Under the pieces are notes generated by a model that saw only the letters and a list, made by a program, of their open reading frames with translations, was not told the origin of the DNA and did not search any database. From a virus (Duplodnaviria > Caudoviricetes): 64,000 bases of DNA. The position numbers and the translations under genes were made by a program. Every line of letters begins with the position of its first letter. Position 1 is the first letter of the stretch. This document shows, in pieces, positions 36,448 to 46,409 of the stretch. The stretch is taken from IMG/VR virus record IMGVR_UViG_3300025437_000009; one strand, given 5' to 3'.

Positions 36448-36993
36448 TTATAAACGACGATTAACGGCGTCCCAGTCAATGATACGCCAAATGTTGTCTA
36501 AATATTTTTCTTTGTTTGCATGATAGTCTAGTGACCAAGCGTGTTCCCACCAGTCTACTAGTAAGGCTATATCAGTGCGTTTTGCATGATTACGAATTGT
36601 TTTAATCTGTCCGGATTTACTGAGATAAATCCAACCAGATCCTTGAATCTTCATTGCTTCTGTTTTGAAGTTCTTTTTAAAGTCTACAAAGTTTGTGTGA
36701 TGTCGATTAATAATATCAAGTATAGTGCCACGAGGACGGCTTACCCCCGGGTTCTTGAATTGACTAAAGTAGATGCCGTGCAAGTATGCACCTGCTTCGT
36801 TGAATCCACGATCACCTTCATGTTTGTTGAAACGATCAACATACCCTTTATACAACTTGCCATAGTGATAGTCGATAGTTGCCGAGCTCATCACTGGACT
36901 TAAAGCAGTTTTAGAATAGGGCAGTTTAATTTGCTCTAGTGTGCCTTTTTCTTTTGCTTCTAGGAGGTCTAGTGTTTGTCTTATATCAGTCAT
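36448..36993 (-). CDS. sod: Fe/Mn superoxide dismutase
   Basis: LPY...AL.P, YHYGK, LH..YF, GSGW.YL, DWWEHA...DY. Confidence 0.85.
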   Translation of the reverse strand: MTDIRQTLDLLEAKEKGTLEQIKLPYSKTALSPVMSSATIDYHYGKLYKGYVDRFNKHEGDRGFNEAGAYLHGIYFSQFKNPGVSRPRGTILDIINRHHTNFVDFKKNFKTEAMKIQGSGWIYLSKSGQIKTIRNHAKRTDIALLVDWWEHAWSLDYHANKEKYLDNIWRIIDWDAVNRRL

Positions 36994-43650: not shown

Positions 43651-43652
43651 CG

Positions 43653-43751
43653 TTAGCTATTCAAAACTTTTGCCACACTATTCATTACTGATGCAATACG
43701 ACCAATGTCACGCAAGTTTTCTACTGTGTAGCCTTCTTGCTTGAGTGTGTC
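43653..43751 (-). pseudogene. orphan duplicate of the ahpD 3' end (32 codons plus stop)
   Basis: translates DTLKQEGYTVENLRDIGRIASVMNSVAKVLNS*, 26/32 identical to the C-terminus of 44677..45192. Confidence 0.85.
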
Positions 43752-44602
43752 AATGAGCCTTCCGCCACACCTTGCTCTACGCTTTCTTTCACTCCGAGTT
43801 TATCAATGATATACTTGCAACTTGATGCAGAAGTATTGATGAAACCCATGAACATTGGCCTATCATCTTTCATCATTGGCATTATATTTTTAACAAAAGA
43901 TCGTGCAGTTTCTTGGGTATAATTTGGAGGAAGTCCAACATAATTGGCTAAAGCAGTCGATGCTTTGTATGATTTATTTGAATACTCCTCTAACATATTC
44001 ATAAAACCATCATCTCTCGGTTGAGTATTTTTGAATACTCCTTTTGCCATTTCAAAAGTTCCAAAGCATTCCGCAGTAATTTTTGCCATTTCTCTGTAAT
44101 CAGAATCGGCGACCGCTTGCTTAGCCGCACCTAATCCGATTGCGCCAACAGCCGCCGCACCCAAGCCTTTCAAAAATCCTCTACGGTCAATTTCATCTAA
44201 CTGTGCTTCCGCCACACCTTGCTGTCCTTGGACAGGGCTGTCTCTAAGTGCATCTCGATAAAACTCTTTGAAATCTTGTGCCAATTCTCTTGCTGACCAC
44301 GCCCAAGTTTGACTGTCCCAATCGTCTGTCATCTCAGCTTCAAGTTTAGTACTCGGGTCTCGACCACGACTAAACCCTATACGAACAGTATGTTCAATTT
44401 GTTTATTAACCAACTTTGCAAATAGTTTGCCATTGGGATTTGGATTAATTGTTACTTTATATCCGTGTTTTTCAGCAAACTGTATCGTTGGCTGTAAGAA
44501 CTGGATTTTAGGATCAACAACACCAGCTTGGGCTGGAATATCTTCCGCCACCGGAGTCTGTGCGGTTTCTATTAAGTTAATGTAATCTCTAAGTGTTTTC
44601 AT
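43721..44602 (-). CDS. modular putative capsid-targeted protein with internal Tat signal
   Basis: MKTLRDYINLIE start after TAAATA (alternative ATG at 44665); LDE-IDRRGFLKGLGAAAVGAIGLGAAKQAVA. Confidence 0.65.
   Translation of the reverse strand: MKTLRDYINLIETAQTPVAEDIPAQAGVVDPKIQFLQPTIQFAEKHGYKVTINPNPNGKLFAKLVNKQIEHTVRIGFSRGRDPSTKLEAEMTDDWDSQTWAWSARELAQDFKEFYRDALRDSPVQGQQGVAEAQLDEIDRRGFLKGLGAAAVGAIGLGAAKQAVADSDYREMAKITAECFGTFEMAKGVFKNTQPRDDGFMNMLEEYSNKSYKASTALANYVGLPPNYTQETARSFVKNIMPMMKDDRPMFMGFINTSASSCKYIIDKLGVKESVEQGVAEGSLTHSSKKATQ
43759..43776 (-). repeat. 18-bp direct repeat AGCAAGGTGTGGCGGAAG, copy 1
   Basis: identical to 44206..44223. Confidence 0.85.
44206..44223 (-). repeat. 18-bp direct repeat AGCAAGGTGTGGCGGAAG, copy 2
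   Basis: identical to 43759..43776; 10-bp core also at 44542..44551. Confidence 0.85.
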
Positions 44603-44676
44603 AATGTAGTATTTATTCCTTGTTCTTACAGTTATCGCCGTGCCAACATAAGATCGATCTCTCATAGAAATATTTA

Positions 44677-45192
44677 TCAACTATTCAACACCTTTGCTAC
44701 ACTATTCATTACTGCCGCTATTCTGCCGATGTCTCTCAACTGCTCAACAGTATACCCCATCTTTTTTAATCCATTATAATGGGCCGAGACACAGAACTTG
44801 CATTTTCCAACAATGCTTGCGGCAAGGCTATATGCCTCAAATCGTTCTTTAGTCGTACCACCGTGGGTTGTGATTGCGTTCATTCTGAGTTGAGCCGGAA
44901 GACCTTTAAGGTTAGCATCTTCTGCCATCTCTACATATGGATACCAAGTGTTGTTCATCGACATCAAAGATGCGGCAGTGAGTGCGGCATCTCGCTCTTG
45001 TGAGTTTTCCATAGAACTTTGAATAAAGGTAACTAATTTCCCGTTACCTGTGCTCATTGCGGCGGCCAGCGCACAACCTTCTGCTTCCTCAACTGCTAGA
45101 GTACTACGCTTAATAACAGCGTCCAAGTTCAACTTAGTGTCCTTGGCGTACTCAGGCAGACCTTCTTTAAGTTGATCTACCCAGGCAGTCAT
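44677..45192 (-). CDS. ahpD: alkyl hydroperoxide reductase AhpD
   Basis: YAKD.KLNL, AASLM.MNN.WY, CKFCVSAH; follows ahpC. Confidence 0.9.
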   Translation of the reverse strand: MTAWVDQLKEGLPEYAKDTKLNLDAVIKRSTLAVEEAEGCALAAAMSTGNGKLVTFIQSSMENSQERDAALTAASLMSMNNTWYPYVEMAEDANLKGLPAQLRMNAITTHGGTTKERFEAYSLAASIVGKCKFCVSAHYNGLKKMGYTVEQLRDIGRIAAVMNSVAKVLNS

Positions 45193-45731
45193 TATAAAGT
45201 CTCTCCGCCAACTGTACGGTTGCAAGCACATAGTTCGCCAGTTTGAAGTGCGTCAAGAATACGCAAAGTTTCTTCAGGGCTACGACCTACGTCCAAGTTG
45301 TTTACAGTAACGTGTTGGATTGTGTTGTCTGGATCAACAATGAATGTAGCGCGAAGTGCCGCACCAGCTGGAGCATAGAATACGCCCAACTGCTCTGCCA
45401 AGCTCAACTCACCACGCTGTGTATCAGCAAATTGGTTGTGCTTGATGTTGATCAAGTCTGGATGGCTCTTCTGCCATGCGATCTTACAGAACTCATTGTC
45501 TGTTGAACCTGTTAGCAATACTGCGTCACGGTCTTCAAAGTCTTGATTCAATTTGTCGTATGCTACGATTTCTGTAGGACATACAAATGTAAAGTCCTTA
45601 GGGTAGAATACGATTACTTTCCATTTACCTTCAAAAGAAGTTTCATCAATGTTGAAGAAAGCATCTTCTGGTTGGCCTGGCTTAACGCCTGTTACTACAA
45701 AGTGTTCTAATTTATCACCGATTGTTTTCAT
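45192..45731 (-). CDS. ahpC: peroxiredoxin AhpC
   Basis: FYPKDFTFVCPTE; GELCAC. Confidence 0.95.
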   Translation of the reverse strand: MKTIGDKLEHFVVTGVKPGQPEDAFFNIDETSFEGKWKVIVFYPKDFTFVCPTEIVAYDKLNQDFEDRDAVLLTGSTDNEFCKIAWQKSHPDLINIKHNQFADTQRGELSLAEQLGVFYAPAGAALRATFIVDPDNTIQHVTVNNLDVGRSPEETLRILDALQTGELCACNRTVGGETL

Positions 45732-45758: not shown

Positions 45759-46409
45759 TTACTTTTGTGAATTGCAGTTATAGCAAATCACTTCTAAATT
45801 GTCTTCTACGTTATTGTAGATGTCGTTGTCCCATTGTGTTACAGTTAACGGTGCTGGACGACCTTGCCATTCTGTAATACCGCAGGTTTCACATTTATGA
45901 CCACGCTTTTGGATAATATAATCTTGGATATAGTCCGGAACAGTTTTCCAGTTATATACACTACAATCGCTCATCCATTCTTCAATTCTTTTTTCACTAA
46001 GTAATTTTTTTCTATGATTTTGCTGGCACTGATTGTTACAATATTTGCTTTGATACGATCCGCCTCTTACAGGATTTTCTCTGTTACAGAATAAACAGTT
46101 GAATATAATTTGTCTAGAATTTAACATGTCAATTGCGTTATGAGATAATCCTTCTCCGCCTGGAGTTTTATTGTGTAATATTCCTGTATTGTTATTTTTT
46201 CTTCCATACTCGGCTATTAATTGTTTTTCTAAATTAAACGCTTCGTCTTCGCTTAAGTTATCTTTATAGAATACAATTCTATTTTTGTCCTCCGGTGGAT
46301 GAACACTTCTTCCATAACATCTTGTAGCTCGACCGTTGCGACCTTTGCCGATATAGTACGGAGTACCATCTTCTCTTAAATACCCGTAAACGTAAAAATC
46401 ATTAATCAT
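45759..46409 (-). mobile_element. free-standing GIY-YIG endonuclease-like gene fused to a degenerate HNH zinc domain
   Basis: FYVYGY..EDGTPYYIGKG...RA; KCETCG...NLEVICYNCNS lacking the HNH His residues. Confidence 0.6.

Follow-up and report, generated by a model that had tools for sequence, protein, structure and literature searches.

A DNA word of about 20 nucleotides, which encodes the peptide linker QGVAE, appears to act as a recombination handle and probably also as a protease site, joining protein modules into polyproteins in giant T4-related phages. We put the probability of this reading at about two in three. The word was studied in a 64,000-nucleotide stretch of phage DNA (the window), and the gene in which it is repeated was compared with related loci from IMG/VR and other collections.

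According to the mechanism that we propose, the linker, which many uncultured giant T4-related phages share, would join independent small protein modules into polyproteins. As DNA, it would offer a short identity in a fixed reading frame, so that whole modules could be exchanged, added or deleted in frame when two phages, or two copies of the word within a genome, recombine. As consensus-flanked modules spread, the silent positions of the word would stay fixed. As a peptide, Val-Ala-Glu followed by a small residue would be a cut site for an S77 prohead protease. A single capsid-targeting leader would load the whole module chain, which would be cut into separate small proteins in the head and injected with the DNA. 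In the window, the chain comprises the leader, an N-module, a linker, a module with a twin-arginine (Tat) signal, and another linker. A cut at linker 1 (and at an L-D-E site five residues later) would free the twin-arginine signal at an N-terminus, and the host could then export a four-helix domain of periplasmic type. The sequences themselves show the conserved DNA, the module shuffling, the breakpoints at the linker and the past of the locus; recombination as the mechanism, cutting, packaging and export are inferred from them. The features on which this proposal is built are collected in Table 1.

Table 1. Features of the cargo gene and its surroundings, in window coordinates.
Feature	Position	Strand	Remarks
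ahpC	45192-45731		AhpC-TSA, 6e-22
ahpD-like gene (CMD family)	44677..45192	-	Pfam CMD, 1.5e-11; conserved pair with ahpC
HNH homing-endonuclease remnant	44613..44676	-	About 634 nt lost between the first ~30 nt and the last 35 nt; intact in L135, L136 and L138
AATAAATA box, late-promoter-like	44610..44617	-	Located 7 nt upstream of the ATG; marks the 5' boundary of the cassette that L214, L224 and L225 share
Cargo polyprotein gene	43721..44602	-	293 aa; leader, N-module, linker, Tat module, linker, junk tail
CTS-like leader MKTLRDYINLIE	44567..44602	-	Ends in a site of I-x-E type; resembles the T4 CTS
First linker, degenerate, 10-nt core (TPVAE|D)	44542..44551	-	Relatives read EQGVAE or ESVAE at the same position
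N-module, 112 aa	44207..44542	-	Most widespread family: 21 loci, 6 left-hand and 10 right-hand neighbour families
Linker copy 1, 18-mer (QQGVAE|A)	44206..44223	-	Identity with six relatives stops here
Predicted twin-arginine signal (RRGFLKG, hydrophobic stretch, AVA)	44108..44206	-	Directly past the linker and past the L-D-E site
Mature part of Tat module	43775..44107	-	Predicted four-helix bundle, two conserved Cys; pLDDT >90 over residues 30-137
Linker copy 2, 18-mer (EQGVAE|G)	43759..43776	-	GSL comes next, from the beginning of a module since lost
Older ahpD 3' end relic, frame-shifted	43652..43761	-	Supplies the gene's 11-residue tail and stop codon

Linker repeats and the gene that carries them

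The 18-mer AGCAAGGTGTGGCGGAAG is present in two exact copies in the whole window, both on the minus strand and exactly where the original prediction had placed them; the chance expectation from shuffled sequences is 0.01. A scan of the window allowing up to three mismatches revealed no further copies. The 10-nt core GTGGCGGAAG occurs three times (at 43759, 44206 and 44542, the last again as predicted) versus 0.02 expected. All three core copies are in frame in a single gene on the minus strand (44602..43721), in which they encode TPVAE|D, QQGVAE|A and EQGVAE|G. The two 18-mers lie at a distance of 447 nt, and the sequence that they enclose (44206..43775) amounts to exactly 144 codons. These open with a predicted twin-arginine signal of canonical form, and the repeats do bracket precisely the Tat-bearing module as had been claimed.

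The QGVAE sequence is also found in the product of the open reading frame 489-2543, where it is encoded by CAG GGT GTA GCA GAG, unlike in the 18-mer; this earlier observation was confirmed. In the window, which has a G+C content of 39.5%, GTG accounts for 12.8% of Val codons and GCG for 6.1% of Ala codons. Since the linker uses these rare codons and other codons serve at the QGVAE of ORF 489-2543, the protein sequence does not force the linker DNA, and the identity of the 18-mers exceeds codon bias. ORF 489-2543 (684 residues) is itself another module chain, and has three modules in common with a 794-residue ORF of L003. The adjacent ORF 2-487 encodes a DUF6321 protein with the CTS-like leader MKSSDFVVE.

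The product of the gene with the repeats is made up, in this order, of a leader, the degenerate linker, the 112-residue N-module, linker 1, the Tat module, linker 2 and an 11-residue tail. The leader MKTLRDYINLIE resembles the capsid targeting sequence (CTS) of T4, MKTYQEFIAE (PMC8442874), and ends in (L/I)-x-E, a likeness judged by eye over 12 residues, for which no statistic is possible. Many genes in related loci begin with MKxxEF(I/L)xE.

Upstream of the gene lies the box AATAAATA, of which the window contains seven copies on the gene strand (60943, 54727, 44617, 37271, 37006, 9637 and 3785) versus one on the other strand. The T4 late promoter is TATAAATA. Comparison with this element suggests that AATAAATA may be a T4-like late promoter variant that gives rise to almost leaderless transcripts. 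Three of the copies are located 5-7 nt before an ATG, namely those of the cargo gene, of a superoxide dismutase (SOD) gene (at 36993) and of a ClpA-like gene.

Database searches with the gene were largely unproductive. INPHARED contained neither a DNA nor a protein match, PHROGs and PADLOC gave nothing, Pfam gave a weak TAT_signal match only, and the ESM Atlas returned only unnamed clusters below 0.9. In the modules of relatives, Pfam identified DUF6321 and, weakly, KOW and GNAT. ClpA-like, radical-SAM, AhpC/AhpD and tail-fibre-like genes are present in the window, which comes from a large phage for which no close relative was found among deposited phage genomes. Oxidative-stress genes are located next to or near cargo polyprotein genes in three different phages (L003 6762-7199; L005 9537-9977; window 36448-36993 and 44677-45731), and comprise Dps-like, SOD (with a CTS-like leader) and AhpC/AhpD genes.

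The linker word and its modules in other phages

The consensus of the linker DNA is about AG CAA GGT GTG GCG GAA GGC, read as QGVAE|G. A search of IMG/VR with the 16-mer CAAGGTGTGGCGGARG matched at least 120 stretches, often with 2-5 copies on the same strand 150-500 nt apart; this was the count of the linker DNA in relatives that the original prediction had proposed. Among the matches listed, 172 of 174 copies of the 16-mer were in frame as QGVAE, within open frames of at least 70 codons. The giant contigs contained one to six exact copies of the word each, and a reversed control pattern none. In two loci (L230 and L232), a 20-nt sequence matched the second linker copy of the window exactly.

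Two exact direct repeats around one insert-like module could in principle also be a local target-site duplication, or a chance identity of codons in this gene. The word is in frame, encoding QGVAE|G, in at least 118 other IMG/VR contig stretches, where it lies between unrelated modules, and it is thus not specific to one insertion site; the low chance expectation given above speaks against coincidence. We rejected both explanations and give them next to no probability.

Most of the linker census was drawn from loci picked by the pattern itself, and therefore carries an ascertainment bias. In loci found by protein similarity alone, GTG-GCG was used in 15 of 17 distinct junction contexts. At junctions without a pattern match in the pattern-found loci, Val was encoded by GTG in 78 of 115 cases and Ala by GCG in 84 of 138, compared with 18% and 7% elsewhere in the same ORFs; of the VA dipeptides elsewhere in these ORFs, just 29 of 491 were encoded by GTGGCG. 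The preference extends beyond these two codons. In 157 of 324 contexts, the codon preceding the word ended in AG (AAG, GAG or CAG), irrespective of the residue; the linker Gly was encoded by GGT in 290 of 310, and the residue after the word mostly by GGC. Judged by these codon preferences, it is the nucleotide sequence of the linker, over about 20 nt, that is conserved. Free variation of synonymous positions at QGVAE sites, which would have spoken against the original prediction, is not seen.

Homologues of the gene share only the first ~140 residues, with the N-module, and are otherwise chains of different modules, in which nearly every junction is (Q/E/K)-G-V-A-E. When 199 proteins were cut at the linker, 538 modules of at least 35 residues were obtained, which fell into 423 families. 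For 17 of the 18 families with at least three members, several different neighbour families were found. The DNA of the N-module is 92-98% identical to that of four other loci (L001, L002, L005 and L006) although the flanks are unrelated, and none of the window's neighbouring genes occurs beside the N-module in L001-L011. The identity is about 15/15 per 15-nt window over some 300 nt of the N-module, and drops to random immediately past the linker. Likewise, L214 matches the window at 96.8% identity between the AATAAATA box (44616) and a point inside linker 1 (44208), and outside this segment the two are unrelated.

Behind the same leader and N-module, six different continuations were found: the Tat module in the window, a 17-residue tail in L214, another module with a GKRRDGK tail in L215, a GKRRDGE tail alone in P0002, a GSLEEYG... 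module in P0001, and a DUF6321 module in P0003. Module content after the linker therefore differs between close relatives, and the earlier proposal of in-frame module swapping at the linker DNA is supported, as DNA identity between relatives breaks at the linker.

The N-module itself was modelled by AlphaFold with low confidence (pLDDT 55). In L007 (5986-6339), and also in L008, it constitutes a stand-alone gene of 117 residues that lacks leader and linkers, with the same edges as in the polyproteins. When the N-module of the window was compared with its otherwise near-identical copies in L001-L006, nearly all differences changed an amino acid, and they were concentrated in the ten residues that follow the upstream linker (44513-44542). 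Synonymous differences amounted to just 2-3%.

A synonymous comparison within orthologous N-modules is uninformative, since the whole module is so similar in DNA, and diverged module pairs were compared in its place. Linker codons differed by 19% beside modules that are at least 95% identical (interior synonymous difference 3%), and by 19% beside modules that are less than 60% identical (interior synonymous difference 49%). Linker divergence is thus uncoupled from module divergence, as would be predicted for a common, recombining linker pool. In several independent pairs, identity blocks of 93-99% end inside the word. Such blocks, together with the independent assortment of linker variants, are what crossover within the word predicts. 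A length of 18-20 nt is short for efficient homologous recombination, and we count this against the role as a handle.

The constancy of the word could instead be enforced at the level of RNA or translation, with rare codons and SD-like stretches (AAGGUG / GGAAGG) slowing the ribosome; modules would then be shuffled illegitimately, and selection would keep the junctions at the linker. GTG and GCG are indeed rare codons, SD-like stretches do lie within the word, and the sole insertion that can be reconstructed in the window used microhomology and not the linker. However, three of the five codons (CAA, GGT and GAA) are the commonest ones, so that the word is not a rare-codon cluster, and neither the identity blocks ending in the word nor the independent assortment of its variants is explained. 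We therefore regard a translational origin of the conservation as unlikely, and favor recombination in the word.

History of the locus

The gene adjoining the cargo gene, ahpD, allowed us to reconstruct how the locus arose. Among 80 loci with related ahpD genes, 78 also contain ahpC. In the closest relatives (L135, L136 and L138; ahpD 98% identical), an intact gene for an HNH homing endonuclease of 233 residues follows ahpD, and past it lies a relic, the 3' end of an older ahpD from the active-site Cys-x-x-Cys/His region onward. The window retains the two ends of the endonuclease gene and the same relic. The ahpD relic of the window is 75% identical to 44681-44757, and 77-83% identical to the relics in L136 and L135. 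Between the decayed HNH gene and the relic sits the cargo cassette of 851 nt (44612-43762).

The 3' join of the cassette is found at GCTCATT, where Gly-Ser-Leu of a common post-linker module coincides with Ala-His-Tyr of the relic. The 5' join is found at AATAA, overlapping the endonuclease stop codon and the promoter-like box. As read from these two joins, the cassette is attached by microhomology at both ends, which marks an illegitimate insertion rather than a linker-to-linker event. For the placement of this cassette, the notion of the linker as a handle was therefore not borne out. QGVAE|GSL opens modules in 15 other contexts with the same DNA. By this comparison, the tail past linker 2 is composed of three residues of a lost module and the frame-shifted relic, and the second repeat is the end of a truncated chain and not the mark of a linker-to-linker crossover.

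We had considered that the cargo insertion itself displaced the end of ahpD. This was rejected: as the relatives carry the HNH gene together with the ahpD relic, the endonuclease gene displaced the ahpD end first, and the truncated cargo gene landed later. The active-site region of ahpD looks like a homing target in the window and in L135, L136 and L138. In L134 (5659-6819), where ahpD is 99% identical, the next gene encodes a 386-residue protein with a signal peptide that resembles a Gram-negative porin, and neither an endonuclease, nor a relic, nor a cargo gene is present past ahpD.

The homing-endonuclease scar raises the question whether the linker word might be the target of a site-specific phage nuclease, with the cut triggering repair from another phage. 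An asymmetric conserved word of ~20 nt would match the size of a homing site, and a further GIY-YIG/HNH gene lies nearby, at 45759-46409. Yet homologues of four local endonucleases were found in only 9 of the 120 linker stretches listed, in 4 of them within 3 kb of a linker. The ahpD loci are richer in such homologues (16 of 80), and the local HNH gene is tied to ahpD and not to the linker. A nuclease target is thus very doubtful as an explanation of the word, and exchange by recombination within it remains our preferred reading.

Proposed cleavage and packaging, and known systems

The original prediction had taken the linker for a protease site within an internal head protein. This part of the proposal gained from several findings, and stands as a sequence-based reading. 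A Peptidase_S77 domain was detected in five of six large related contigs (G001, G007, G008, G009 and G010; E 1e-23 to 1e-27) and not found in the sixth (G006); the protease is thus known from related contigs, among them two relatives identified by ahpD, and not from the window. In G001, the S77 gene lies together with portal, scaffold and major capsid protein genes in a block that resembles that of T4. The T4 CTS is removed by a cut of the prohead protease (PMC8442874; PMC3012670), and in phiKZ and SPN3US T4-related proteases of S77 type act at x-X-E motifs, cleaving on the C-terminal side of Glu (PMC5694885). The linker, with Val-Ala-Glu ahead of Gly or Ala, fits the aliphatic-x-Glu rule of T4-type (S77) prohead proteases. 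Against this, the residue at P3 in descriptions of the T4 enzyme, gp21, is Leu or Ile rather than Val.

The same modules start either directly past a CTS site or directly past a linker. This applies to the Tat signal and to DUF6321; the latter stands behind a CTS-like leader in ORF 2-487 of the window and in L003, and behind linkers in other cases. The positional interchange of the CTS site and the linker is the strongest indirect argument for cutting. Taken together with the CTS-like leader of the gene, it makes a prohead protease cut site the most likely identity of the linker peptide.

A further argument comes from the Tat module. Pfam scores the TAT_signal match of the gene product at 20 bits (E=6e-4), under the cut-off of 22.7, and that of P0012 at 22.1 bits. 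The predicted signal begins at residue 144 of the gene product and not at its N-terminus. Tat signals work only at the N-terminus, so that a cut at the linker or at the L-D-E site would be required for function. All 14 twin-arginine signals seen (window 44108-44206; L039, L044, L079, L099, L130; P0012, P0018, P0033 and P0035-P0038) lie at most eight residues past a CTS-type (aliphatic-x-Glu) or linker site, and differing mature domains follow them. This arrangement points to masked export signals as a class of their own among probable capsid cargo.

QGVAE might alternatively be a flexible hinge, and the proteins might remain uncut or might be processed by a different enzyme, for instance a zincin-type peptidase as in polyvalent proteins, perhaps outside the head. 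Cleavage at the linker is so far deduced from sequence, HExxH-containing proteins are encoded in related loci, and polyvalent proteins have been proposed to be processed by their own metallopeptidase (PMC5512222). Against this count the position of the Tat signals, which need an N-terminus, and the interchangeability of linker and CTS site before the same modules; the gene itself is without a peptidase domain according to Pfam. An uncut hinge or a different protease thus appears quite improbable to us, and cutting by the prohead protease is retained as the preferred reading.

The mature part of the Tat module is ~31% identical to proteins of 121 residues that have Sec signal peptides and two conserved Cys, suggesting that it is a domain of periplasmic type. 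A Foldseek comparison with the PDB returned generic four-helix bundles only (E about 1), and no specific match. No relatives of the module were found in IMG/VR by peptide patterns, and a set of 5.8 billion yielded P0012 only. In this sole close homologue, the module is flanked by NESEE and NESVE and not by QGVAE. We count these flanks against a movement of the Tat module itself through the linker, which we do not claim.

Among known systems, the internal proteins IPI-III and Alt of T4 (PMC3012670, PMC8442874) come closest. They share the MK..EF/Y-I..E leader ending in an aliphatic-x-Glu site and the highly diverse cargo behind a conserved leader, and the related contigs with S77 and the late-promoter-like box before the gene add to the likeness. 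In contrast to T4 internal proteins, which are single proteins with one cut, the present ones are chains of unrelated modules with a repeated internal site that is conserved as DNA; P3 is Val, and the system in the window is known from its sequence and not from virions. In phiKZ and SPN3US, many inner-body or ejection proteins are similarly cut after Glu at x-X-E, sometimes at several sites (PMC5694885), but their motif is S/A/G-X-E, and they are not shuffled module chains with a DNA-conserved junction.

As a DNA element, the word recalls the PeSL cassettes of T4-type phages (Arbiol et al. 2010, PMC2839356; PMC4122927), short conserved DNA words scattered in plastic regions, where recombination swaps, deletes or circularises the DNA between them. 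PeSLs are intergenic, consist of a sigma70-like promoter and a stem-loop terminator, and move whole genes, whereas the linker word lies in frame within coding sequence and would move gene parts; no inverted repeat or hairpin was found at it. The glycine-rich motifs of gp38 and the His boxes of gp37 in tail-fibre adhesins (PMC3157838) are likewise conserved in-frame motifs between variable segments that are exchanged between the motifs. They belong to one structural core with a fixed order, unlike the independent domains described here, which occur in any order and number and are joined by a motif that resembles a cut site. By analogy, the system may work like the T4 CTS and gp21 cut extended to module chains, or like PeSLs or gp38 motifs moved into a coding linker with a cut site.

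Polyvalent proteins (Iyer et al. 2017, PMC5512222) also combine unrelated domains of effector type, two to 15 per polypeptide, and are thought to be packaged, injected and processed. With two modules in the window and up to seven linker sites per ORF in relatives, the chains fall within this range. Polyvalent proteins differ by a proposed in-built metallopeptidase, and no common linker or DNA-level junction has been described for them; their hallmark domains (MPTase and other catalogued effectors) are absent from the gene according to Pfam. In the literature that we searched, we found no mention of QGVAE in a phage, nor of a Tat signal on an ejection protein, and no paper dealing with this linker system.

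A more far-reaching version of our proposal is possible but tentative. Modules flanked by the 20-nt word would form a gene-internal cassette system, semi-autonomous and mobile among very different giant phages, in which the word is both recombination and protease site; some of the cargo, such as the Tat module, would enter the head and be injected, and once the cut had unmasked its signal, it would be re-exported to the periplasm via the host Tat system. Phage-injected proteins with a masked export signal are a testable idea that has no earlier description.

If our main reading is correct, these phages possess a built-in, frame-preserving trade in small injected proteins, which are probably tools for host takeover or against host defence. 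It would explain the free recombination of a very large cargo pool, which amounts to 423 families in our small sample. With the linker as a sequence tag, candidate injected effectors would be simple to find in metagenomes, and the linker chain suggests a natural design by which several proteins may be delivered into T4-type capsids from one gene.
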